From: a virus
Reading direction: 5' to 3' (one strand)
Length of the DNA stretch: 64,000 bases
IMG/VR virus record: IMGVR_UViG_3300024262_003767
The translations under genes were made by a program, and so were the position numbers. This document shows positions 4,089-62,967 of the stretch, piece by piece. How positions within the stretch are numbered: the stretch's first letter is position 1; each line of letters opens with the position of its first letter. The notes beneath the pieces were generated by a model. It saw nothing but the letters and a program-made list of their open reading frames with translations. It was not told where the DNA came from and did no database searches.

Positions 4089-4437
4089 TTTCTATTTTAT
4101 TTAATTTGGTTTTTCTTATATCTTTTTCTAATTTTTTCTTTAATCTATCAAAATCTGATATTTCAAAGAAATACTCAAATGCATTTTCATATGTTTCTTT
4201 TGTGATATAATATGTCTCTCCGTCTTTGGTATATGTTCGGGGTGGTAGTATTTTAAAAAAGTATGTAGTATCACGATTAAATCCAGAACTTCTTTCTAAT
4301 CTGATTATATCACCACTATATAAAAAAGTAAACATTCCTCTATCTACATATTTAGTATTGGTATTTTCATCGGGTATATCATATCCTTTCTGAACCCCAA
4401 TATCAATCAATCCTAATATAAATTCATCATTCATCAT
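4078..4437 (-). CDS. hypothetical protein
   Basis: 119-aa ORF; start/stop overlap with neighbours suggests an operon. Confidence 0.5.
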   Translation of the reverse strand: MMNDEFILGLIDIGVQKGYDIPDENTNTKYVDRGMFTFLYSGDIIRLERSSGFNRDTTYFFKILPPRTYTKDGETYYITKETYENAFEYFFEISDFDRLKKKLEKDIRKTKLNKIENEM

Positions 4438-4705
4438 TTATTTGCTCTAATTTCTTTTTTCTCAAATTTTTTCTCAAATGTTCTTTATATCTATCAGATT
4501 TTAATAAGAAGTTTTTTATTTCATTTTGTGTTGATTTTAAACCACAAGTAATAGATCCACTTGAGTATGTTAGCCAACCATTATGAAAAAAAAGATATTG
4601 ACCTCTATTAATAATTATACATTCTCCTAGTAAACCACTATCTTTTTTCAAAACATATATATCCTCGGGTATATCAAAAAAATCTATTGCTTCTAATAAA
4701 GTCAT
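4427..4705 (-). CDS. hypothetical protein
   Basis: 92-aa ORF in co-oriented block. Confidence 0.5.
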   Translation of the reverse strand: MTLLEAIDFFDIPEDIYVLKKDSGLLGECIIINRGQYLFFHNGWLTYSSGSITCGLKSTQNEIKNFLLKSDRYKEHLRKNLRKKKLEQINDE

Positions 4706-5215
4706 TTAAATGTTATTTTGTCTAATTATTTCTTCGAAAATAGTTGATTTTAAATCTTCATACAAATCTTCAAGTGAATTATTAATTTTCTGAGATGTTC
4801 GTATCACTCTTGTTTGTATTATTACATCATCTTTTCTTTCATATTCTGGATCTATACCAACCACTAATCTCATTGCTGTAGGTAAATATTTGCCATATTC
4901 AAATAATGTAATAGGATTTAGTGAACCTTTAGAAAACCAAAAAAGTATAATATTTGATTCTTTTAATTTATTATGTTCCCAAATGATTTGTTCTTTTAAT
5001 TTATTTCTTGATATTTTCTTTGACATTTTCTTCCGTCTCGGATTAAAAATGTCCGTGTGTTCAAACATATTTTTAGTTTGTGGATATTTTTCAGACTTTA
5101 TCTTTTCAATTATTTCATTTTGCCAATTTGGACAATTTGAAATTCCACCTGCTAAAAATAATTTAATTTTATTCAGGCTTTTAAGTTTACTCGGGGCTTC
5201 TAATATTTTTAACAT
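4706..5215 (-). CDS. nucleoside 2-deoxyribosyltransferase / DNPH1(Rcl)-like protein (tentative)
   Basis: KLFLAGGI...W near N-terminus and ILFWFSKGSLNPITLFEYGKYLPTAMRLVVGIDPE resemble the YLAG.. and FEhGyA motifs of the NDT/Rcl family. Confidence 0.4.
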   Translation of the reverse strand: MLKILEAPSKLKSLNKIKLFLAGGISNCPNWQNEIIEKIKSEKYPQTKNMFEHTDIFNPRRKKMSKKISRNKLKEQIIWEHNKLKESNIILFWFSKGSLNPITLFEYGKYLPTAMRLVVGIDPEYERKDDVIIQTRVIRTSQKINNSLEDLYEDLKSTIFEEIIRQNNI

Positions 5216-5657: not shown

Positions 5658-6491
5658 TTATATAATTTTTAATTTTTTAAGTTTATCTTTATCATAAACT
5701 TCTATTTTTTTGTCTCTATATTGTTTTTTAAAAGCAAGATATTTATCTTTTGCATCATCTCTCCACCAGCCTTTAACTTCAACATATAAATCACAATCAA
5801 TAAGGTAAAAATCTGGTCTATATGTTCCTTCAGCATTATTATAATTGATAGGAAATGCTTCTGGTTCAAAGAACCATTCTATGTTATTTTTATCCAAATA
5901 AGTTGCATATTTTATTTCCCAAGAACTTCTCATCCACACAGAATCACCATTTTTACATTTATACCATTCACCTTTACCATGATAACATTTACCATAAAAA
6001 TTAGATTCCTTACCTCTTTTTACATTTTTACTTTTATTGATTAGCATTTTTTGATATCTTATGTTTGCTTCTATTTCGCCATATTTTTCTAACCAAACAC
6101 TAAATACTGAACGACCATACATTGGATTTTTATCACCAGACATTTTGACACTTATCTTTTTTTTAGTTTTGTCTGAATGATAATTACCTATGTTAGATTG
6201 ACTTATTTTTTTCTTTACCTCGTCTGTTCTATGCTTACCTTTAAAATGATGTGTATTATTTTTGTGCCATTCGATAAGTTTTTCAATCTTAACATCTTTA
6301 TTTGTATTCGCATTCACTTTATTAGAACACGATAAGCATAGATCATTTTTAACTGCATATCTATATTTTTTTTCTACTTCAGCATCACAATCTTTACATT
6401 TCCAAATTACAGTCTTTTCGCTACTTGGTTTCAAATCATTTGAATAATACCCAAACATATCCTTTGTTTTTTGTTCTAAAATAATACCCAT
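5658..6491 (-). CDS. homing-endonuclease-like protein with NUMOD3-type repeats and C-terminal PD-(D/E)xK nuclease-like domain
   Basis: NUMOD3-like repeats (HSDKTKKKIS, GDKNPMYGRS), N-terminal Cys pairs CKDCD..CLSC; C-terminal RPDFYLIDCDLYVEVKGWW = PD...EVK. Confidence 0.55.
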   Translation of the reverse strand: MGIILEQKTKDMFGYYSNDLKPSSEKTVIWKCKDCDAEVEKKYRYAVKNDLCLSCSNKVNANTNKDVKIEKLIEWHKNNTHHFKGKHRTDEVKKKISQSNIGNYHSDKTKKKISVKMSGDKNPMYGRSVFSVWLEKYGEIEANIRYQKMLINKSKNVKRGKESNFYGKCYHGKGEWYKCKNGDSVWMRSSWEIKYATYLDKNNIEWFFEPEAFPINYNNAEGTYRPDFYLIDCDLYVEVKGWWRDDAKDKYLAFKKQYRDKKIEVYDKDKLKKLKII

Positions 6492-27352: not shown

Positions 27353-28216
27353 TTAATTTAATTCACCTTCCCAAACAATTTTATATTCATATTTACCTGG
27401 TAGTAGTATAATTTCTCTTTGATTTGTATGGTAATATTGTGTTGGTAATTTCTGTACGTCAACTAGTACATCTTTAGGTTGTACTTCCATCATAATAACA
27501 AAAGGTGGTGATGATGGTTGTTCATCCACAAATCTTCTAGCCACTAATATATTTGTAGTCCAAGATGTCGACATATTGAAATCGGATATAACTTTTTCAC
27601 CAACTTTGTATGGTGGGGTTTTTTTTGAAAAATGTTTTATTTGAACTTCTTCAATACCTTTATAAATCTTTAAAGGTTTATCTGGTTTAAAAGGTTTTAA
27701 TTCGTCTATAATATCTTGTGTTAATTTTGATAATAACAAAGAGCCAGAACCTATATATGAATATAACCAATCATCAGTTTTTTCAGATAATTCAACATTT
27801 ATCCTTTCAGGTGTATGTTTATCATATTTAGTAAATCCTCCAATGTAACGAAAAGATATCACATCTCCATTTTTAATTCTTGCTAACCATTCACCTGTTA
27901 TTGAATGTTTATAAAAATAACCAGAATAATCATCAACATCAACTTCTTCATCTTCACTAAATCCAAAAAAATCTACAATTTGTTTATATAGAGGTTTTTT
28001 TGTTTTAATTTGATAGATATATTCACTATTTATATCAGATGCGTCTGCTCTATTTGTTAAATAGATTCTTTTTAAATGATTTAGATTACTAAAATCTATA
28101 TCTTCTAATTTTAATGGTTCATCAGAATATAAATATAAATTTCCATTATATGTTTTTTGATCGTAATCTACTTCATTATAATCTACAAGTTCAAATAATT
28201 TGAATTTAGTTATCAT
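27353..28216 (-). CDS. hypothetical protein
   Basis: 287-aa ORF overlapping the start of the cca gene. Confidence 0.55.
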   Translation of the reverse strand: MITKFKLFELVDYNEVDYDQKTYNGNLYLYSDEPLKLEDIDFSNLNHLKRIYLTNRADASDINSEYIYQIKTKKPLYKQIVDFFGFSEDEEVDVDDYSGYFYKHSITGEWLARIKNGDVISFRYIGGFTKYDKHTPERINVELSEKTDDWLYSYIGSGSLLLSKLTQDIIDELKPFKPDKPLKIYKGIEEVQIKHFSKKTPPYKVGEKVISDFNMSTSWTTNILVARRFVDEQPSSPPFVIMMEVQPKDVLVDVQKLPTQYYHTNQREIILLPGKYEYKIVWEGELN

Positions 28217-29465
28217 TCATAAGATATTCATTTTTGAAACGCACAATCTCTCGTCTTTTCTTTTCTATTTCAATTTCAATTCCTTTGAAACCTTCAGCAG
28301 CTAAATCATTACCATTAACCACAAATCCATCATTACAATAATCAACAAATGGTTTATAGAATTCTTCACCCAAAAACTCATAAATTAAATCATCATCAAT
28401 ATGATATTGATTTTTCATTTTAGCCAAACCGTAAACATTTGAAACGTCAATGTTTTTAAATGATTTCCAATGTAAATCTAATTCCTTCTCAAGTTTGAGC
28501 AAAAATTCAATCTGGTTCACTAACTTGGAACTAAATTTCAATTCACTAATCATATATTTTCTCAATTTACGAATATCATTATCACGAAGTAAATGTGCAA
28601 ATAATATTGCGGAAATAGGTTTTGGTGTAAATCCATCGGGAGATATTTTCAATTTGGGAAACATTTGTTCCCACATATCATATTCAGTTAATAGTCTGAT
28701 ATAATTTTCTAATATTTTGTTTCCGCCTTTTTCTGCGTGTTCAATTACCTTATTCCATTCTTCATGTATTCTTTCTTGTGATACATCTTCTTTGGTACTT
28801 ATACCACGTAGTCTGTTATCACTTTTAATGGCTCTTGATGTCTCAGGTGATATGATACCACCTTTTCTACCTTGGGCTCTTGCAGCGAATCTAAATACTC
28901 TTAAAATTCTTAATCTATCTTCTTTAAATCTCTCAGCAGGATCACCAACAGCACGTATAACATTATTTTCAATATCTTTAACTCCACCAACCAAATCTAC
29001 AATTTCTTTTTTATTTATATCATAGAAAAGAGCATTGATAGTTAAATCTCTACGTTTAACATCATCTTCGATTGTAATATGGTTTCCAATTTCTACTTTA
29101 TCATCATCACCTTTTGTATCTCTACCTCCAGAAATATCTTTTCTAAAAGTTGCTAATTCGTGTCCGAGTGGTTCATCTTCAGTATAAATTCTAAGTACGC
29201 CAAAATTTTTACCTTGTTCATCAGAAACATTCCAACCTTTCAAAATTCTTTTACTTTCTTCTGGTAGAGCATTTGTGACTAAATCAAAATCATGTGGTAT
29301 CTTTTTTTGCAAAAAATCACGAACCGCTCCACCAACAACATAGATATCTTTACCAGCATTATTGAAGGCTCTTGATATTTCTTTAATGTCATAAGGAATA
29401 GGCATCTCAACAGAGATAGTATTTTCAGTTATAAATTCTAAATATTTTTTTAATTTTTCTACCAT
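28206..29465 (-). CDS. cca: tRNA nucleotidyltransferase (CCA-adding enzyme) / poly(A) polymerase family
   Basis: Head-domain motifs YVVGGAVRDFLQKKIPHDFDLVT and RRDLTINALFYD. Confidence 0.85.
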   Translation of the reverse strand: MVEKLKKYLEFITENTISVEMPIPYDIKEISRAFNNAGKDIYVVGGAVRDFLQKKIPHDFDLVTNALPEESKRILKGWNVSDEQGKNFGVLRIYTEDEPLGHELATFRKDISGGRDTKGDDDKVEIGNHITIEDDVKRRDLTINALFYDINKKEIVDLVGGVKDIENNVIRAVGDPAERFKEDRLRILRVFRFAARAQGRKGGIISPETSRAIKSDNRLRGISTKEDVSQERIHEEWNKVIEHAEKGGNKILENYIRLLTEYDMWEQMFPKLKISPDGFTPKPISAILFAHLLRDNDIRKLRKYMISELKFSSKLVNQIEFLLKLEKELDLHWKSFKNIDVSNVYGLAKMKNQYHIDDDLIYEFLGEEFYKPFVDYCNDGFVVNGNDLAAEGFKGIEIEIEKKRREIVRFKNEYLMNDN

Positions 29466-46955: not shown

Positions 46956-49472
46956 TTAGGCTTCTAAAAGTGGAGTTTCATCTTTTGGTGGTAATTCTTT
47001 ACTATTCAAATTAACAATAGTAATCTCACCATCTTTACTTCTAAGTGAAACTTTATCACCAATTTTAATTTCACCATTGAGAATAGCATCTGTTAGAGTA
47101 TCTTCAATGTGTCGTTGAATTGCTCTTTTCAATGGTCTTGCACCATATTCAGCATCCCATCCTTCTTCAAATAAGAAGTCTTTAAGTGACTTTGTGATAT
47201 TTACAACATAACCAATATCTTTAAGTCTATCGAGAGTTGTTTTAATTTCAAGGTCAATAATTCTGAAAATGTTGTCTTTTGAAAGAGCGTTGAACATTAT
47301 AAGTTCATCAACTCTATTAAGAAATTCTGGTGCAAATTTCTTTTTCAATTCTTTATCAATAACAGCGTTCTTCTTATCTTGAATGTTTTTGTTGGTGGCA
47401 TTTGTTTGAAATCCCATACCTGTACCAAAATCTTTAAGTTGTCTTGAACCTGTATTCGATGTCATTATGATAATTGCGTTTTTAAAATTAACTCTTCTAC
47501 CATAACTATCAGTAAGAATTCCATCATCAAGAACTTGTAGAAGTATATTAAATACGTCTGGATGCGCTTTTTCCATTTCATCAAGAAGAACAATTGAATA
47601 TGGTTTTCTTCTGATGGCTTCAGTTAATTCACCACCATCATCATAACCAACATATCCTGGAGGCGCTCCAATCAATTTTGAAACTGAATGTTTTTCCATA
47701 TATTCAGACATATCAATTCTAATGAGGTTTTCTTCTGAACCAAAGAGTTCTTTTGCTAGAACCTTTGCTAAGTAAGTTTTACCGACACCTGTAGCACCTA
47801 AGAACATAAATGTTCCGACAGGTTTTTTAGGATCTTTGATACCAATTCTACTACGTTTGATTGAACGAACAATTTTATCAACAGCATCATCTTGTCCAAT
47901 AACAATATTTTTCATTTTAGTTCCAAGATTTCTCAATTTGTTTGATTCATCATCATCAACAGCATCAAGTGGGATTTTGGTCATCATTGAAACAACTTCA
48001 GCAATATCTTCTTTTCCAACGATTTCACGATTTTCGTCCAATTTTTCGTTCCATTCCTCTTTCAATTTTTTCAATTGTTCTGTAAGGTTTCTTTCTTTAT
48101 CTCTCCAAGAAGCAGCTTTTTCAAATTTCTGTTCGTCAACACATTCAGTTTTCTTTTTCTCGGCTTCTGAAATTTTACTTTCAAGAATAGAAATAGCTTT
48201 AGGTTGATTTGAATTTGAATCTACATGAACTTTGGCACCAGCTTCATCCAAAGCGTCAATTGCTTTATCTGGCATAAATCTATCATTCATATATTTATCA
48301 GTCAATTTTACACAAGCTTCAATTGCTTCATCTGTGTACACGACTTTGTGATAATCCTCATATCTAACTTTGAGTTGTTTAAGGATTTCAATAGTTTCTT
48401 CAATGGTAGTAGGTTCTACCACAACTTTTTGAAATCTTCTTTCTAATGCACCATCTTTTTCAATATGTTTTCTATATTCTTCGAGAGTAGTTGCACCAAT
48501 ACATTGGAATGTTCCTCTTGCTAATGCTGGTTTTAACATATTAGATGCATCAAGTGAACCTTGTGCGCTACCAGCACCAATAATTGTATGAATTTCATCA
48601 ATAAAAAGTATAATGTTTGATGTTTCTTCAATTTCTTTGATAATTCCTCTTAAACGAGATTCAAATTCGCCACGATATTTTGTTCCTGCAACAAGGGCAC
48701 CCATATTAAGGGTGAAAATTCTTTTATCTTTAATGTTGTTTGGCACTTTACCATCAACAATTCGTTGTGCTAAACCTTCAACAATTGCAGATTTGCCAAC
48801 TCCAGGCTCACCTATAAGAATAGGATTATTTTTCTTTCTACGTGAAAGAATTTGACTTATTCTTTTAATCTCAATTTTTCTACCAACAACTGGATCGAGA
48901 GAACCTTCTTTTGCTTTTTTGGTAATATCTTCACCAAATTGTTCAATAAGTTTAGGTTTCTTATTTTTATTTGATGCTGTTGTATCACTATGATGCATTT
49001 CTGGATCATCCCAATCTGCACTATTACTTATTCCAGTAACTTTTTCGTGTAATTTTTTAATTATCTCACCTTCATCAATTTTTGAAAACATATCATTTAA
49101 AATATTATTTTTAGTATTTAAGAGTGAAAGTAATACTACATCAGTATCAACATATTTGACATCCATTTCATCAATTATTCCAACACAATTTTCAAGTATG
49201 TCCGTAACTTCTTGTGATAATTGTACTTTATCTTTTCTCTCTGCCAATTGAATATGCTCCATTTGGTTTCTCATTACCAAAGCATCTTGAATAGTTTTTT
49301 TGATTGTTGGAATACGAATATCAATTTCTTGAAGAACTTGATAAGCACGATAATTTTCATCCTCAATTAGAGCCAAAAACAAGTGTTCTGGTTCAATTTC
49401 AGATGATTTATATTGCAACGCAATCGTCTTACTATTCTTAATCACATTATCTACGTCTTTGTTAAAGTTCAT
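46956..49472 (-). CDS. clpB: ClpB/ClpC-family AAA+ chaperone (two nucleotide-binding domains)
   Basis: N-terminal Clp-N repeats; NBD1 GEPGVGKS + LFIDEIH; NBD2 [10 protein letters not shown] + [14 protein letters not shown]; sensor GARPLKR. Confidence 0.9.
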
Positions 49473-55265: not shown

Positions 55266-55721
55266 TTATAAATTATATTTATCCATTTGATCCATTTGAT
55301 CTTTCACATTCTTTCTCAAATCATCCAAATTTGTGAGTTGTTGTCTTGGATGACGAATTTTCAGTCTATCAGATATTGCATCCAATATAAAAGGTTCTAT
55401 ATCTTGATATCCTTTATTTTCTACCATATCACTAATATCTTTTGGTAACCAAATTTGATAATATTTAAGTTCACTATCAAAATTTCCTCTTGCTTGCAAT
55501 CCTTGTATATTAGACATTCCTTGACGGTCTTTATTAATTTTTATCATCTTTTCAATACCTAGAACTTTTTTAAATCTACCATCTTTTTCTTCAATAAATT
55601 CAGGTCTTGCCACAAAAGCAAATAAGTCATGTTCTTTACTATTTGGATTCATATCAAATAGTTCTTGAAATACTTTTAAATCTTCTTCACTATATCCTTC
55701 AAAATATTTTAAATGTTCCAT
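55266..55721 (-). CDS. hypothetical protein
   Basis: 151-aa ORF sharing a start/stop nucleotide with the C1 peptidase gene. Confidence 0.5.
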   Translation of the reverse strand: MEHLKYFEGYSEEDLKVFQELFDMNPNSKEHDLFAFVARPEFIEEKDGRFKKVLGIEKMIKINKDRQGMSNIQGLQARGNFDSELKYYQIWLPKDISDMVENKGYQDIEPFILDAISDRLKIRHPRQQLTNLDDLRKNVKDQMDQMDKYNL

Positions 55722-56407
55722 TATATTACGTTTATTTCATTAGCCATACAAACTTCACCATAATCTTTGATAAGTTTGTCCATATCATCAAATGAGATAT
55801 ATGCAAATCCTTTTTTACCCCATTCTCTACCCCAAGAATTTTTAATTCTTATTAGTTTCTTTTTAACATTAACACCATCTAATAAATATGCGTGTCCGCC
55901 CATTTTATTTCCTGTTGGAGTTATAATACCTTCACTATTTGGAAAAAACATATCATAGTACCACCAAGTACCAACAACAACAGGACCTAATGTTAATAAT
56001 GCGTTTACTGTTGTGTCAATATCCCAAGCCCAATTATATCCATTAATATACCCTGCAGATTGTAAAACTTTAGCACCAGCTCTAACACTAGTTCCATCAT
56101 AATCTTCACCAGGCCAACGATCTATCTTTTGTGCTTCATTATATAAATATTCTGTATCATAAGGTGCTACTCCACCTTTTCTACTTGCTTTTTGTGTTAT
56201 TGGACCAGAGGCTAACCAATGTATCCAACTAAATGCAACACAATGAGGTTTATAACCTTGATTTCCCCACCATCCATTTGTCCACCAATATTTATAATCT
56301 ATACCTGGTAATTTTTTAGGTAGCATTGAACTAATTAGGAATTGATGATCCCTATCATCAGGTTTTATAAATCTACCTAATCTTGATTTTAATTGATTTT
56401 CATTCAT
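55721..56407 (-). CDS. papain-like cysteine peptidase (C1 family), no signal peptide
   Basis: Gln/Cys: GNQGYKPHCVAFSW (QG.C.AFS); His: GGHAYLL; Asn: NSWGREWGKKGF. Confidence 0.8.
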   Translation of the reverse strand: MNENQLKSRLGRFIKPDDRDHQFLISSMLPKKLPGIDYKYWWTNGWWGNQGYKPHCVAFSWIHWLASGPITQKASRKGGVAPYDTEYLYNEAQKIDRWPGEDYDGTSVRAGAKVLQSAGYINGYNWAWDIDTTVNALLTLGPVVVGTWWYYDMFFPNSEGIITPTGNKMGGHAYLLDGVNVKKKLIRIKNSWGREWGKKGFAYISFDDMDKLIKDYGEVCMANEINVI

Positions 56408-58111: not shown

Positions 58112-61100
58112 TTAAAAATCTGTTATCAAAGATGATATCAAATTATCATTTTTCTTAACAGTTATTAATCCATCATAATTTATTGGATGAACATGCTCAA
58201 TTATAATAATTTTATCAATTTTATTTTTTATTTCGTCTAATAGTTCAATAAATTCCATAACAGATTTTTCATATAATTTGCCCATAATCTCATCAAGAAT
58301 AATAAAATTAGGTCTTGATTTTACATTAATTTGTCTTAATGCAATTTTTAATGTTAATGCACAAAATGTTCTTTCTTTACCTGATGATTCGATTGCATTT
58401 TGTGAAACATCTAATCTATCATCCATACTTAATTTTAAAATTAAATCATCATTAAAGAATAATGTAAAATCAACATTAGTCAATAAGTCGTTCAATTCTT
58501 TATTTATTAGATGTATAGATTTTTTTAGAAGATAAGTAGGAATACCGTCTCTGGATATACATCTCTGGTACTCTTTCATTAGTTCTTCTTGCTTTTTTTG
58601 TTGAATAAATTTCTCAATTCGTGATTGAATATCTTCTATTGATTTTTCTAATAATGCTATTTCTTTTTTAATTTCAGATATTACTATATATTTTTCATCA
58701 ATATTACTTTTCAATTCTAAAATATACACATCTTTATCATCAATGTCTAATTGAGTTTGTTTATTTTCCTCAATTTGTGATTCATACATTTTAAAATTAT
58801 TAATAGTTTGTTCTATTTCTTTAATCTTCAAAAGATAATTATCAATATTTAATGTTAGTTTTTCTTTTAAATTGACTTTATCTTTTCTTAGTTCGTAATT
58901 TTCTTTAATTTTTTCTTCATGTTGAATATCATCTTCAATAGATTCAATATTTAATGATTTTAACTCGTTTTCAAGATTTTTAATTACCGATAAATTGTCA
59001 TTTTTATCTTTATCTAATTTTTTCAATAACATTTTACCTTTATCAAATTTATTTTTTAATTCTTCATTAATTGATAAATCATTATTTTTTAATCTTTCAA
59101 TTAACGATTCAATCATTAATATTTCATTCTCAAGATATTTAGTATCTTGAAGAACGTTTAATTCTGATAATATTTCTTCGTCATATTCACCACTTGTTAA
59201 TTTATCTCGTTTTAATCTGAGAGTCTGAATTTTTTCCTCTAATTCGGGTATAATAGGTGTTAAATCTTTATATTCCTCAATTAAATCCTTTATTTTAATA
59301 GTATTAATTTCTATATCATGTTCTAATGTTTTAATCTTTTCTTGAATGTGTTCTAAATGATCGGGTGTAGATTCGTCATAATCTCTACCACATGCAGGAC
59401 AAAAACTTGAATTTTTAAATTCTTCAATTTCTTGAAGTTTCTCATCATTTCGTGATTTTAAATTTGAACCATCTTTTTTCAGATTTCTAATTTTATTTTC
59501 GAGATTAATTTTTTCAAGTTCATTCTTCTTTATCTCATCTTTAATTGATATTATTTTTGAGTTTATTATACTCAATTTTTCACTTTCAACATTAGAAATT
59601 TCTTTTTCTTTAATGTTAATTTTGTCTTTTAAATTATTAATTTCTTTATCTCTAAACTCTCTAAGTTTTTGTTTTACTTTATCAACCTTCGTATCAATTT
59701 CATTATTATTTGTTTTAACTGATGATATTTCTTCTTTTATTTTTGAAATTTTATCATTAGTTAATTTTAATTTATCTTTTAAATTGTTAAGTTTATCTGG
59801 CTCAAATTTAGAAGGTAATTCATTTATATCTCTATCATAGATACTTATTTGTACTTTATTATCATCAATCTTTTGATTATAATTTGATAATGTATTATTT
59901 GAAATATTCAGATCAAAATTGATCATCGATTCATCAATTTTATTTAATTTTTTAATTAAATTATCTCTTAAAGAATTTTCACTATCCAATTCTAATTTAA
60001 AATCTATAATCAATTTCTTTTGTTCTTTTATCGTATTTTTCTTCTCTTCTATTACATTTACGATTTCAGAAATCTCTTGCTCTGATTGACTAACATCAAC
60101 TATAATTTTTTCAATGTTGAGATCTTTTTTATAATCTTTATATTCATTTTGTTTCTTTTCAAAAATATCATAACCAGCATCTCTAATGATGCTATCCATA
60201 AACACACTTCTATCAGCAGATAAAAGTTCATTCAAATTATCTGCATTAGTTAATGATATTCTAACAAAATCTTTAAAATCACCAAGAATAAGATCTAATT
60301 TCTTTTGAGTTTGAGTTTTTCTTTCACCAGTTTGTTTATTCTTTTCTTTTATTTCTTCAGTATCATAATAGTCCACATTGGTAGAACAAGATTTTATTTC
60401 TCCACTTCTATTTTCATCTCGTTCAGTTTTTCTCAAAATTGTAATTTTTTCACCATCAATATCTAAAACAGCGCCACCTGAACATTTATTTAATTTTCGT
60501 TTATTGTTAATATATCTATTATCACCGTGTTTTTCTCTTTTTACGGTAGTTGTGGTTGTACCATAAAGAATATATGTTATAACATCTAAAATAGTAGTTT
60601 TTCCTTGTTGGTTTTCACCATGAATTTGTATGATACCATTTAAATCTTTCCAATCAATTTTATTTTTATCACCAAAAACTCTAAAATTATCAAACCAAAA
60701 TTTTTCAATTTTCCACTCAATGTTAGTTTTTTGTTCTTTAATCTCTAATCTATCATTAATTAAATCATCAATTTTTAAAATTTCATCAATATCATTTTTT
60801 TTATATCCTTGTTCTTCAAGATATTCTTTAAATATTTTACGTTGAGTTTCAACATTTGTTAAATCTAATGTTTCAGATAACATTTTAGATGAAACCATAT
60901 CTGTATAAATGTATGTTTTATCAAATTTTACTTTGGTTGAATCATATTTATTTTTAATAAAGTTTCGTATTTTTCTTTCATTTTCAGTATTGATGTTGGA
61001 ACTTAAATCTTTCCAATGCACTTTAAATTCAGGAAAATTTCCAATTCTTTCATTTGTGTGTAATGTCAAATTATCATAATCTTCACCTTCATTGATATAT

Positions 61101-61279
61101 AAATTGATAAATGTATATTCATTAAGAATATCTATTTCTTCAACTCTAAAGTCAGTTTTACTTTTTATATCCCAAACCAAAAATCCATGTTTATCAACAT
61201 CTTCACCAAATGATTGTTGAACTGGACTACCAGGGTAACCAATAGTTGGTATTTTTTTCTTTATTTTTATTTTAGACAT
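58112..61279 (-). CDS. Rad50/SbcC (T4 gp46-like) ATPase with an N-terminal ~185-aa segment matching the C-terminal part of Mre11/SbcD
   Basis: aa 10-25 IPTIGYPGSPVQQSFGE = SbcD/Mre11 GSP..SF.E motif; Rad50 Walker A GENQQGKTTILDVITYILYG at ~aa 215; long coiled coil; zinc hook CPACG; Walker B/D-loop FIILDE near C-terminus. Confidence 0.8.
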   Translation of the reverse strand: MSKIKIKKKIPTIGYPGSPVQQSFGEDVDKHGFLVWDIKSKTDFRVEEIDILNEYTFINLYINEGEDYDNLTLHTNERIGNFPEFKVHWKDLSSNINTENERKIRNFIKNKYDSTKVKFDKTYIYTDMVSSKMLSETLDLTNVETQRKIFKEYLEEQGYKKNDIDEILKIDDLINDRLEIKEQKTNIEWKIEKFWFDNFRVFGDKNKIDWKDLNGIIQIHGENQQGKTTILDVITYILYGTTTTTVKREKHGDNRYINNKRKLNKCSGGAVLDIDGEKITILRKTERDENRSGEIKSCSTNVDYYDTEEIKEKNKQTGERKTQTQKKLDLILGDFKDFVRISLTNADNLNELLSADRSVFMDSIIRDAGYDIFEKKQNEYKDYKKDLNIEKIIVDVSQSEQEISEIVNVIEEKKNTIKEQKKLIIDFKLELDSENSLRDNLIKKLNKIDESMINFDLNISNNTLSNYNQKIDDNKVQISIYDRDINELPSKFEPDKLNNLKDKLKLTNDKISKIKEEISSVKTNNNEIDTKVDKVKQKLREFRDKEINNLKDKINIKEKEISNVESEKLSIINSKIISIKDEIKKNELEKINLENKIRNLKKDGSNLKSRNDEKLQEIEEFKNSSFCPACGRDYDESTPDHLEHIQEKIKTLEHDIEINTIKIKDLIEEYKDLTPIIPELEEKIQTLRLKRDKLTSGEYDEEILSELNVLQDTKYLENEILMIESLIERLKNNDLSINEELKNKFDKGKMLLKKLDKDKNDNLSVIKNLENELKSLNIESIEDDIQHEEKIKENYELRKDKVNLKEKLTLNIDNYLLKIKEIEQTINNFKMYESQIEENKQTQLDIDDKDVYILELKSNIDEKYIVISEIKKEIALLEKSIEDIQSRIEKFIQQKKQEELMKEYQRCISRDGIPTYLLKKSIHLINKELNDLLTNVDFTLFFNDDLILKLSMDDRLDVSQNAIESSGKERTFCALTLKIALRQINVKSRPNFIILDEIMGKLYEKSVMEFIELLDEIKNKIDKIIIIEHVHPINYDGLITVKKNDNLISSLITDF

Positions 61280-62148
61280 TTATTTAATTTTATTTTAAAT
61301 TCACCATTTAGAATATTGGTTTCCCAGAACCTTAAAATATTAAAATTATTAGATTTTGAAAGTTCATCTTTAAAAATATCATTTTCAATATTTAACATCT
61401 GAGTCTTATTTAATTCATTTATATTAAATATGTTGGGGTTAGCATGCCAATAATCACCATCTGCCTCAATAATTATATTTTTATCTATTAACATAAAATC
61501 ATATATTTTATATCTTAATTTACCATCAAGTTTATAGTATATTCTAAATTGTGGTTTATATTTTATTGATTTTTCATCTAAAAAATCACCTATAATTTTT
61601 TCTATTTTAGTTTTACTTTTTTTAAATAACCCTTTATGTGCGATTTCCGTCATACTTAAACCATATCTTTCAATGCAAGTATTATTAATTTTTTTTCTAC
61701 ATTCATCGTCTTTCCAATTATGTGTTGTACCATATCGTTCTAAGAACGTATTTTTTCTTTTTATTTTTGATTCAGGTTTCCATCCAAATGGAAATTCATT
61801 ATTTTGATTATATTCTAATTTAGATTTCCTAACTTTATTTTTATAATTTTCATCACTCCACAATTTTTTAGTTATTTTTGAATGTAAATCTTTACTTTCT
61901 TGTGTTTTTACCTTACCAAACATTGGATTTTTTTCACCAACATATATAATTTTTTTATGCTCATCACAACATTTCCTTGAGCAATATTTTTTATCATCAG
62001 ATACTAATACTTCAATATCAACTCCACAATTTATACAATAAATAATTTTTCTTTCAACCTTAGATTTCTTATAATCTTTATATTGACATTTCCTTGAACA
62101 ATATTTCTTATTATTATGTTTCTCACCACAAACTATACATTTTTTCAT
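61267..62148 (-). mobile_element. homing-endonuclease-like ORF inserted between the two halves of mre11
   Basis: N-terminal Cys pairs (CIVCG..CSRKC; CINCG; CSRKC); NUMOD3-like NPMFGK; ERYG repeats as in ORF 1422; C-terminal DUF559/Vsr-like YKIYDFMLIDKNIIIEADGDYWH. Confidence 0.55.
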
Positions 62149-62191
62149 AGATTTTTTGTTGTTTTATAGTATATATAAAAATATAATACTA

Positions 62192-62848
62192 CTATTCTGA
62201 TAATATCCAACCATTTTTTAAATATTCATCTAAGTCTTTATCATCTATCTCCATTTCTACTTCTTTATATTTGAAAAACTGCCTTTTATGTATATCACCA
62301 AGAAAAAGAAAATCATTCTTTTTAAAATCATTAATACTCTTGTACATACTATCAGTAAAAAATTTACCTCTATCGGTAGAACTATTTTGTATAGGGTCAT
62401 GAAACAAACCTATATAAATTTGTTCTTTTTTCTTTGTTTGTCCAACCCAAGGATCATTTAATTTGTCAGGGTGATCATATACAACCCAAGATATATTACC
62501 TTCATCATAAATACCTGTTGTGTCATAATATGTCACATTAGGATTATCAATCAATTTAACTACAACCTTTATACTATCAGTTCTATTTAAATTTTTCTTA
62601 CGCAAATCGTGATTACCTCTTGTTATAATAACTTTGGCTATATGTGAAAGTTTGTTTAAAAATTCACCACCGAGTATTTTTGCTTCATTGGAAATTTCAA
62701 TAAAATTTTCAAATAAATCACCAACAATTACAATTTTTTCTGGTTGTCTTATTTTTAATTCGTTATATATTTTTTCAAATACTTCTCTATACTCATCATG
62801 TCTCTCTACATTTCTAATGTGTACATCTGCTAAATGTGCTATCTTCAT
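62192..62848 (-). CDS. Mre11/SbcD (T4 gp47-like) nuclease, N-terminal phosphoesterase half only
   Basis: Motifs I HLADVH, II VGDLFE, III RGNHD, IV LFHDP, V GDIH; ends after 218 aa, before the GSP/SF.E motif that reappears at the start of ORF 58112..61279. Confidence 0.8.
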   Translation of the reverse strand: MKIAHLADVHIRNVERHDEYREVFEKIYNELKIRQPEKIVIVGDLFENFIEISNEAKILGGEFLNKLSHIAKVIITRGNHDLRKKNLNRTDSIKVVVKLIDNPNVTYYDTTGIYDEGNISWVVYDHPDKLNDPWVGQTKKKEQIYIGLFHDPIQNSSTDRGKFFTDSMYKSINDFKKNDFLFLGDIHKRQFFKYKEVEMEIDDKDLDEYLKNGWILSE

Positions 62849-62967
62849 TCAACTTCTTATTTTTTATTTAGAATAAATCTAATTATTATATGTTATACCC
62901 TTGAAATAGTTTAATGAAAAATAAATTATGAATTTTTATATATAAAAGAAAATTAATCATTAGTCAC

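Follow-up and report, generated by a model that had tools for sequence, protein, structure and literature searches.

The window analysed here, a 64,000-nucleotide stretch of the IMG/VR virus record IMGVR_UViG_3300024262_003767, encodes a homologue of the Mre11-Rad50 (SbcD-SbcC) nuclease that is interrupted by a homing endonuclease gene (HEG) of the free-standing type. Very probably, the endonuclease has split the gene so that two polypeptides are made, which would reassemble into one enzyme. The break lies within the nuclease fold, and the new ends carry short peptides of opposite charge, an acidic C-terminal tail on the upstream piece and a basic N-terminal leader on the downstream piece. The locus would be a clean natural case of a selfish endonuclease that fractures an essential enzyme within the catalytic fold and yet leaves it functional.

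Each component of this arrangement has already been published. Dassa et al. (2009, NAR 37:2560, PMC2677866) described one Lake Gatun locus from the Global Ocean Sampling (GOS) data where a free-standing HEG of the Vsr-like kind divides an SbcD-like gene and no intein is involved. At that locus the upstream ORF is longer by approximately 25 residues at its C-terminus and the downstream ORF by 9 at its N-terminus, all of them missing from intact SbcD, and the 3' end of the HEG overlaps the downstream ORF; the window has 26 and 9 residues and a 13-nt overlap. Fusions of Mre11 and Rad50 (SbcD/SbcC) were described by Yoshida, Claverie and Ogata (2011, Virol J 8:427, PMC3175470) in Mimivirus R555 and its metagenomic relatives, many of which are probably phage-derived, the type being abundant in aquatic viral metagenomes. 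Finally, the NrdA of Aeromonas phage Aeh1, which is split by mobE, cannot do without its tails, which come from the insert and are of opposite charge (Crona et al. 2011, NAR 39:1381, PMC3045599), and such tails were predicted, from this one case with tails lacking homologues, to be a general way of neutralising gene fragmentation.

What appears from sequence comparison to be new is the single-chain parent gene, an HEG lineage dedicated to one site, a conserved and charge-complementary tail and leader, and the coexistence of empty, loop-only and split alleles. Whereas Dassa et al. had a single locus and did not analyse its extra residues further, here the downstream piece runs into a full Rad50, the charge-complementary pair is conserved in at least 12 lineages, and loop-only and empty alleles are available for comparison. 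Within the searchable literature, we found no paper treating this split at the family level.

Results and Discussion

The nuclease domain of Mre11 is divided between two open reading frames

Three minus-strand open reading frames (ORFs) make up the locus: 62192-62848 (218 amino acids, ORF1), 61267-62148 (293 amino acids, the HEG) and 58112-61279 (1055 amino acids, ORF3). These positions, the 43-nt gap between ORF1 and the HEG and the 13-nt overlap of the HEG with ORF3 (61267-61279) had been proposed in an initial annotation made from the nucleotide sequence alone, and all were verified. ORF1 and ORF3 share a reading frame, and the GC content of the window is approximately 23%.

ORF1 encodes a phosphoesterase of the calcineurin-like type (Pfam Metallophos, 6.5e-14) in which motifs I-V occur in order, with DVH at residues 8-10, GD at 43-44, GNHD at 78-81, H150, and GDIH at 184-187. 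Its AlphaFold (AF2) model has a predicted local distance difference test (pLDDT) score of 91.8, and the top 50 fold matches in the PDB are all Mre11 or SbcD with a probability of 1.0. Little or no variation is seen at the catalytic residues in an alignment of 85 sequences that mixes split and unsplit copies, and all of these residues are present in ORF1, which can be aligned with intact homologues up to approximately residue 197. A search of IMG/VR with ORF1 alone returned no relatives.

The segment following motif V (Y-x-G-S...F-x-E) is contiguous with the catalytic core in the uninterrupted genes L001 and P0003 and in SbcD 7DOG. In the window it is encoded by a separate ORF, at residues 14-36 of ORF3, whose N-terminus reads MSKIKIKKK-IPTIGYPGSPVQQSFGE-DVDKHGFLVW; Mre11 is accordingly split in the window. 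From approximately residue 190, ORF3 continues into a complete Rad50, with Walker A GENQQGKT at residues 221-228 (60596-60619), a CPAC zinc hook at 627-630 (59390-59401), a variant, signature-like motif SSGKER (58370-58387), Walker B at 992-997 (58289-58306) and an H-loop at 1025-1029 (58193-58207). It matches Pfam AAA_23 and SMC_N and the SbcC-like family phrog_77 (1.3e-34), and in the PDB it matches the Rad50 chains 5F3W and 3AUX (1.7e-8).

The initial annotation had read ORF1 as an Mre11/SbcD fragment retaining motifs I-V and had recognised at the start of ORF3 the Mre11 segment that follows motif V, ahead of Rad50; the motifs and the fold and family matches bear out both readings. It had further suggested that the split point would fall within the nuclease/capping domain. 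When intact alleles are combined into a profile, its alignment with Staphylococcus aureus SbcD 7DOG runs through the split site (GHLH...YSGSLLQYSFSE). This places the split within the nuclease fold, with motifs I-V retained by ORF1 and at least three of the core strands left to ORF3.

An ancestral single-chain Mre11-Rad50 gene

The family profile phrog_35725 (1376 positions) covers both pieces, ORF1 matching at positions 8-231 and ORF3 at 428-914. In LR756501 (L001), a 735-kb uncultured phage, the homologies of ORF1 and ORF3 (46% identity each) abut in-frame within one ORF of 1202 amino acids that lacks the insert. Uninterrupted fusions are also present in Microcystis phage Mel-JY01 (1066 amino acids) and in the Tenacibaculum phages PTm1 and pT24 (approximately 1310 amino acids). 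The parent gene, judged by these homologues, is evidently a single-chain Mre11-Rad50 comprising nuclease, capping region and ATPase, and the fusion is ancestral. Since other phages carry uninterrupted fused homologues, the joining of Mre11 from residue ~200 onward to Rad50 in the window would be a remnant of the fused parent and not an outcome of the split.

The initial annotation had expected that relatives lacking the HEG would show an intact Mre11 gene, and had called the fusion of the C-terminal part of Mre11 to Rad50 unusual. The intact gene exists in L001 and other relatives, as an Mre11-Rad50 fusion without the ~1-kb insert; the fusion is real, but it is not unusual, given that the single-chain type is represented by phrog_35725 and had already been described (PMC3175470). 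Like the parent gene, the Mimivirus R555-type fusions have an N-terminal Mre11-like nuclease and capping region followed by a Rad50-like ATPase, coiled coil and zinc hook. Unlike them, the fusion in the window is broken inside the nuclease domain, and of Mre11 no more than the C-terminal third is still joined to Rad50. In the annotation of large phages, short ORFs labelled "SbcD-like" and ORFs labelled "AAA domain" should be read as parts of one Mre11-Rad50 gene.

Insertion site and boundaries of the cassette

The closest uninterrupted allele from the protein search, P0003, is 65% identical to ORF1. Its AlphaFold model (pLDDT ~97) places a strand at R190-F193 (RQFF), a five-residue turn (RKNKS) and a second strand at A199-C202 (AAYC). 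In terms of this predicted structure, the insert replaces the turn of a beta-hairpin just past motif V (GDIH).

The upstream boundary is defined by two loci from one sampling project, L006, which carries the HEG, and L007, which does not. Their nucleotide sequences match at 100% identity through the initial ~610 nt; past that point, immediately after ...TTCAATCATAA, at the first codon of the tail, the divergence is abrupt and total. L007 goes on with the native sequence NGVIIAYPSSLIQQNFGE, whereas L006 goes on with KQTKEIDENELDYYKKNGWVLDE, a stop codon and a homologue of the endonuclease in the window. The position of this divergence indicates that the 26-residue acidic tail belongs to the insert.

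With the endonuclease as the query, IMG/VR yielded 55 loci, and all 11 with 39-45% identity (L010-L020) have the order Mre11N with tail, endonuclease, Mre11C(-Rad50), their Mre11 N-terminal fragments being only 31-39% identical to that of the window. The relatives P0155 (44%) and P0192 (~37%) have the same neighbours and P0195 (31%) does not. Thus every relative of at least 36% identity that was checked (the 11 IMG/VR loci plus P0155 and P0192) sits between a Metallophos ORF and a downstream piece, and the distant relatives (24-31% identity; L021-L029, L046, L048 and P0195) are not in Mre11 and show no obvious gene splitting. The split recurs in LR756508 (L003), where the endonuclease has diverged further. 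The split architecture is retained in at least 12 lineages that have diverged to ~30-40% identity, and distances between HEGs correlate weakly with those between host genes (rho 0.33, p 0.09). From this distribution, the endonuclease lineage appears to be dedicated to this Mre11 site. The view that an HEG split the gene, put forward at the outset, is upheld by the homologues lacking the ~1-kb insert, the L006/L007 identity boundary and the 11 loci with related HEGs at the site.

The site following motif V seems to be an insertion hotspot for mobile elements of different types. In L065 (5001-9332) it is split by a LAGLIDADG_3 HEG (6.9e-10, 287 amino acids) with a four-residue tail, YLTK, and the leader MNNKKILG; Rfam detected no intron in this locus. 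In L066 (5001-6433) the gene is split at the same site with a spacer of only 68 nt and no endonuclease, the upstream ORF ending in GDIHKKQLFYRS* and the next ORF starting with MKKNENKLLGGFAGSLIAQD, and this may be a split that has outlived its endonuclease. A very large clade (more than 1100 database proteins), seen in L007 (6001-11510) and also in L009, L011-L016 and L069-L072, has an Mre11 that stops after ~270 amino acids at a conserved ...L(T/I)N-x. The homology to the window's Mre11C-Rad50 is then scattered among a number of ORFs, with small unknown ORFs lying between them (87, 87, 196, 338, 96 and 745 amino acids in L007). Mre11-Rad50 in this clade is more fragmented or differently organised.

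A Vsr-like homing endonuclease

The 293-residue product of the HEG contains two CxxC...YCSxxC zinc-ribbon-like repeats (residues 4-60), a borderline NUMOD3 match (71-86), DUF7487 (97-167) and, at 183-281, the nuclease domain. Among the Pfam matches DUF7487 is above the cutoff, NUMOD3 is exactly at it (20.4) and DUF559 is below it (18.6 versus 20.6). The residues that are invariant across 54 homologues (E183, D217, E228, G231, D232, H235, D257 and W275) are all present, Y233-W234 preceding H235, and they fall in the motif IIEADGDYWH ... RFWE. A phmmer search of the PDB with the single sequence found nothing meaningful; the family profile was needed, and it matched the DUF559 protein 3HRL (7.8e-4), I-Bth0305I (3R3P, 2.4e-3, over nearly the full catalytic domain) and Escherichia coli Vsr (1CW0, 8.1e-3). 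Several of the 155 homologues have been called very-short-patch-repair endonucleases by the Joint Genome Institute (JGI). The protein, which had been called HEG-like from its sequence, thus fits the Vsr-like (EDxHD) family of homing endonucleases in its domain and profile matches.

The prototype of the EDxHD homing endonucleases, I-Bth0305I, has NUMOD2-like repeats (Taylor et al. 2011, NAR 39:9705, PMC3239194; PDB 3R3P). The endonuclease in the window is similarly phage-borne, with a C-terminal Vsr-like nuclease containing E/D/H/D, a possible N-terminal DNA-binding region of the NUMOD type and a recombination or repair gene as its target. It differs in being free-standing within mre11-rad50, whereas I-Bth0305I lies in a recA group I intron, and in having the two N-terminal CxxC/YCSxxC repeats and DUF7487; the similarity between the two is detectable only from profile to sequence (E 2.4e-3).

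Two related loci carry altered forms of the gene. In L020 (3890-4264) the HEG is cut to 124 amino acids, keeping the nuclease core LIEADGDYWH without the part that would bind DNA (zinc-ribbon, NUMOD and DUF7487). The split, the tail and the leader are retained beside this remnant, and the HEG appears to be decaying inside a gene that is still split. The HEG of L003 (3040-3957) occupies the same site next to the same tail and shares only 22-29% identity with its relatives; it has PDFFIEYQSQNVLEEVKGW in place of EADGDYWH, which resembles a canonical PD-ExK motif rather than a Vsr-like one. Elsewhere in the window, a plus-strand gene at 1422-2321 encodes a second DUF7487 protein (299 amino acids, E 5.7e-25) with weak similarity to residues 125-235 of the HEG, and may be another free-standing endonuclease-like gene.

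Between the stop codon of Mre11N and the ATG of the HEG, eight of nine related cassettes (L010, L011, L014, L015, L017, L019, L067 and L006) have a hairpin with the stem GUUUUGUUGU/ACAACAAAA and the loop UAUUUAUU, with compensatory changes in four pairs; some of the loops hold TATAAATA-like sequences. Hairpins in the 5' untranslated region (UTR) of the HEG were also reported by Dassa et al. (PMC2677866), and they are conserved in the cassettes related to that of the window. A small hairpin of the window's own spacer is not significant (fold z-scores -0.35 and -1.27).

A conserved acidic tail and basic leader

The tails of 11 split loci share the core x-E-I-x-E-x-[DE]-L-x-x-Y-x-x-x-G-W-x-[IV], in which Y and W are invariant. 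Pairwise nucleotide identity of the tails at codon positions 1, 2 and 3 is 0.61, 0.67 and 0.44, and their amino-acid identity (0.40) is similar to that of Mre11N (0.38), the HEG (0.39) and the first 60 native downstream residues (0.37). With third codon positions least conserved and amino-acid identity matching that of its neighbours, the tail would be under selection as a peptide and not as RNA, and we regard the codon pattern as a mark of purifying selection. The model of ORF1 alone contains a helix in the tail, at residues 203-211.

Each downstream ORF, in nine loci, has an ATG at or overlapping the HEG stop codon, followed by a basic leader in which K/R alternates with I/L (for example KIKIKKK, KKIKIRRK, RIKIKK and MLRLRKR). 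At all 10 loci where both peptides are known, the net charge of the tail (-3 to -10) is opposite to that of the leader (+2 to +6).

Tail and leader also occur together, as one in-frame loop of 33 amino acids, in the uninterrupted Mre11 of P0058, P0260 and P0344 (3, 1 and 6 contigs), as in GDIHKRQIFIH-KQTMEVDKENLERYIKIGWVVDD-DKNS-AKINIKK-VIPICYSGS. No endonuclease was found near these three loop-only alleles. The distance from GDIH to GS is 48 residues in all three, compared with 15 residues in 167 loop-less alleles and 12-19 in 13 more. Three allelic states, empty, loop-only and split, therefore coexist. Because the loop has a fixed length in a single chain, the C-terminal end of the tail and the N-terminal end of the leader would be only a few residues apart; its sequence suggests a small hairpin of acidic strand, short turn and basic strand, with the HEG sitting at the turn. 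A view of the tail as a degenerate copy of the downstream HGFLVW strand was discarded, since the loop-only alleles have both in one chain.

This arrangement resembles that of Aeh1 nrdA/mobE (Friedrich 2007; PMC3045599), where a free-standing HEG likewise interrupts an essential gene of DNA metabolism close to the active site, the halves have their own stop and start codons and insert-derived, oppositely charged tails, and there is neither RNA nor protein splicing. The host gene differs, mobE is of the HNH type, and the polarity is reversed, NrdA's C-terminal tail being basic and the N-terminal one acidic. Moreover, the NrdA tails have no detectable homologues whereas the tail in the window is a conserved motif, and the function of the NrdA tails was proven biochemically whereas that of the window's tail is inferred only.

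Proposed reassembly of the two polypeptides

We propose that a homing cassette of ~1.0 kb, consisting of 26 acidic-tail codons with a stop codon, a 43-nt 5' UTR, the HEG, and an ATG with a nine-codon basic leader, entered the turn of the hairpin. Two polypeptides would result, one of 218 amino acids with motifs I-V and one of 1055 amino acids carrying the rest of the nuclease strands together with the capping region and Rad50. These would reassemble non-covalently, without RNA or protein splicing, by beta-sheet complementation in the nuclease core. The end of the acidic tail (GW-I/V-x-E) and the basic leader (K-I-K-I-K-K) could assist as the two strands of a small hairpin, and it is quite plausible, on sequence grounds, that they form a functional clasp. 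Somewhat more tentatively, tail and leader may be the halves of a portable 33-residue clasp mini-domain that travels with the HEG lineage, makes the fission of Mre11 phenotypically neutral, and is left as an in-frame footprint after loss of the HEG in P0058, P0260 and P0344.

By analogy with I-Bth0305I, the endonuclease would presumably cut insert-free alleles near the site during co-infection. Repair from the HEG-bearing genome would then copy the entire cassette, including tail and leader. In phage T4, gp46/47, the Mre11-Rad50 homologue, helps to process endonuclease-made breaks during homing. The HEG may thus target a gene on which its own spread depends, and this would select strongly for a non-disruptive insertion.

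A portable clasp would be a third solution to gene interruption beside introns and inteins, and a conserved, transferable split-protein adaptor, unlike the one-off, unalignable tails of Aeh1 NrdA. The conserved tail and leader family in its three allelic states makes the generality proposed by Crona et al. directly testable, and the pair could supply a short natural adaptor for split-protein engineering.

Several observations weigh against this proposal. Confidence in the tail is only moderate in the model of ORF1 alone (pLDDT 62-80). A few family members have tails that are not acidic (P0006, +2; P0099, +6). L065, with its LAGLIDADG HEG, and L066, with no HEG, are split at the same site without a Y/W tail, so the tail is not the sole way to tolerate the split and may not be strictly required. 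The spacer hairpin of the window is degenerate, only its 3' half being kept, and a highly divergent intron could escape the Rfam scans described below.

A possible but rather unlikely alternative is that tail and leader are the halves of a pre-existing, permissive surface loop of 33 residues, characteristic of one Mre11 lineage and spread only by co-conversion with the HEG. Such a loop would have no role in assembly, complementation of the core being sufficient. The loop-only alleles themselves, with one fixed length in three diverged genes, are compatible with this view, as are the tail-less splits of L065 and L066 and the finding that the Aeh1 NrdA tails are unnecessary for heterodimer formation (PMC3045599). 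A merely permissive loop is, however, difficult to reconcile with conservation equal to that of the catalytic domain, with invariant Y and W, and with charge complementarity in 10 of 10 loci. Moreover, of 183 uninterrupted alleles the loop is present in only 3, which lie dispersed among relatives that lack it and are 63-73% identical; a cassette footprint fits this scatter better than an ancestral lineage trait.

It is improbable that the split inactivated the nuclease, leaving a decaying pair of pseudogenes or a protein of which only the Rad50 part is functional. The break does lie inside the nuclease fold and not between domains, but both ORFs are intact, ORF1 has every catalytic residue conserved in the 85-sequence alignment, and the split persists in at least 12 lineages, even where the HEG has decayed (L020).

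Still less probable is that the HEG resides in a self-splicing group I or II intron, in which case the mature mRNA would encode a continuous Mre11-Rad50 and the tail and leader would lie outside the functional protein. Vsr-like HEGs are known from group I introns of recA (Dassa 2009, PMC2677866; Taylor 2011, PMC3239194), and ORF1 and ORF3 are in one frame. Rfam scans, however, found no group I or II intron in 60800-62900 at E<=10, nor in L003, L010, L014, L065 and L066 at E<=1. Only ~120 nt upstream and ~0 nt downstream of the HEG ORF would be available, which leaves hardly any non-coding room for a ribozyme core. The tail is conserved as a peptide, every downstream piece starts from an ATG and leader of its own that are conserved, and both peptides are translated in-frame in the loop-only alleles. 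The initial annotation had thought a group I intron unlikely, and the negative scans together with the conservation of tail, ATG and leader agree with that judgement.

The least probable explanation is that tail and leader constitute a very short split intein through which the pieces are ligated by protein trans-splicing: the order of host N-terminal part, Vsr-like HEG and host C-terminal part, with the HEG overlapping the downstream ORF, is identical to that of fractured-gene loci, and a genuine, atypically split intein occurs in the Rad50 P-loop of related loci, but there is no Pfam intein or Hint match on ORF1 or ORF3, 26 and 9 residues are far below any functional intein, the tail sequences have no conserved Cys or Ser in first position and the leader sequences do not end in HN-C/S/T, the loop-only alleles keep the 33 residues in a contiguous ORF, and Dassa et al. 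judged their own SbcD-like locus to be intein-less (PMC2677866).

As a positive control, the real split inteins of L007 and L066 gave weak Intein_splicing matches, and L067 had been so annotated beforehand. These inteins break the Walker A loop of Rad50 (GK|S/T) in the related phages; the P-loop of the window, GENQQGKTT, is uninterrupted. Their coordinates are 4372-5109 and 6434-7879 in L067, 7315-7905 and 9273-11510 in L007, and 5687-6433 and 6460-8910 in L066. The N-terminal half is ~29 amino acids long (for example CVEESTEIDIEFDEQYIIDKLGFLPDELK*), and the C-terminal half, of ~125 amino acids, ends in ...YYSNGI(I/V)SHN followed by S or T. A free-standing ORF lies between the halves in L067 (422 amino acids) and L007 (338 amino acids), and L066 has none.

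Features of the locus and neighbouring genes

The features of the locus are listed in Table 1. A scan for terminators found none on the minus strand within the locus, and a scan for sigma-70 promoters was uninformative (52 sites versus 48 expected).

Table 1. Features of the split mre11-rad50 locus, in window coordinates
Feature	Coordinates	Strand	Evidence
Mre11/SbcD N-terminal catalytic fragment, native residues 1-192, motifs I-V, ending ...GDIHKRQFF	62273..62848	-	Pfam Metallophos, motifs, AF2, alignment with intact homologues
Apparently insert-derived acidic C-terminal tail KYKEVEMEIDDKDLDEYLKNGWILSE, 26 amino acids, net charge -5, plus stop codon	62192..62272	-	Missing in intact alleles; within the insert in the L006/L007 comparison
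AT-rich 43-nt spacer, the HEG 5' UTR, keeping the 3' half ACAACAAAA of the related-cassette hairpin	62149..62191	-	Fold z-scores, related loci
Free-standing Vsr-like (EDxHD-type) homing endonuclease, 293 amino acids	61267..62148	-	Pfam and PHROG matches, 155 homologues, family-invariant residues
Vsr-like nuclease domain of the HEG, residues 183-281 (YDF...IIEADGDYWH...RFWE)	61306..61602	-	Family-profile matches to PDB
Apparently insert-derived ATG and basic leader MSKIKIKKK, net charge +5, overlapping the HEG 3' end by 13 nt	61253..61279	-	Missing in intact alleles
Rest of Mre11, ORF3 residues 10 to ~190: last nuclease beta-strands (IPTIGYPGSPVQQSFGE...HGFLVWDI), capping region, Rad50 linker	60710..61252	-	Abuts the ORF1 homology in intact L001
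Rad50/SbcC-like ATPase, ORF3 residues ~191-1055	58112..60709	-	Pfam, PHROG and PDB matches, motifs

Neighbouring genes in the window match phage families, and include those for an ATP-dependent protease (46956-49472, minus strand; phrog_4871, 2.6e-260), a tRNA nucleotidyltransferase (28206-29465, minus strand) and a peptidase (55721-56407, minus strand).

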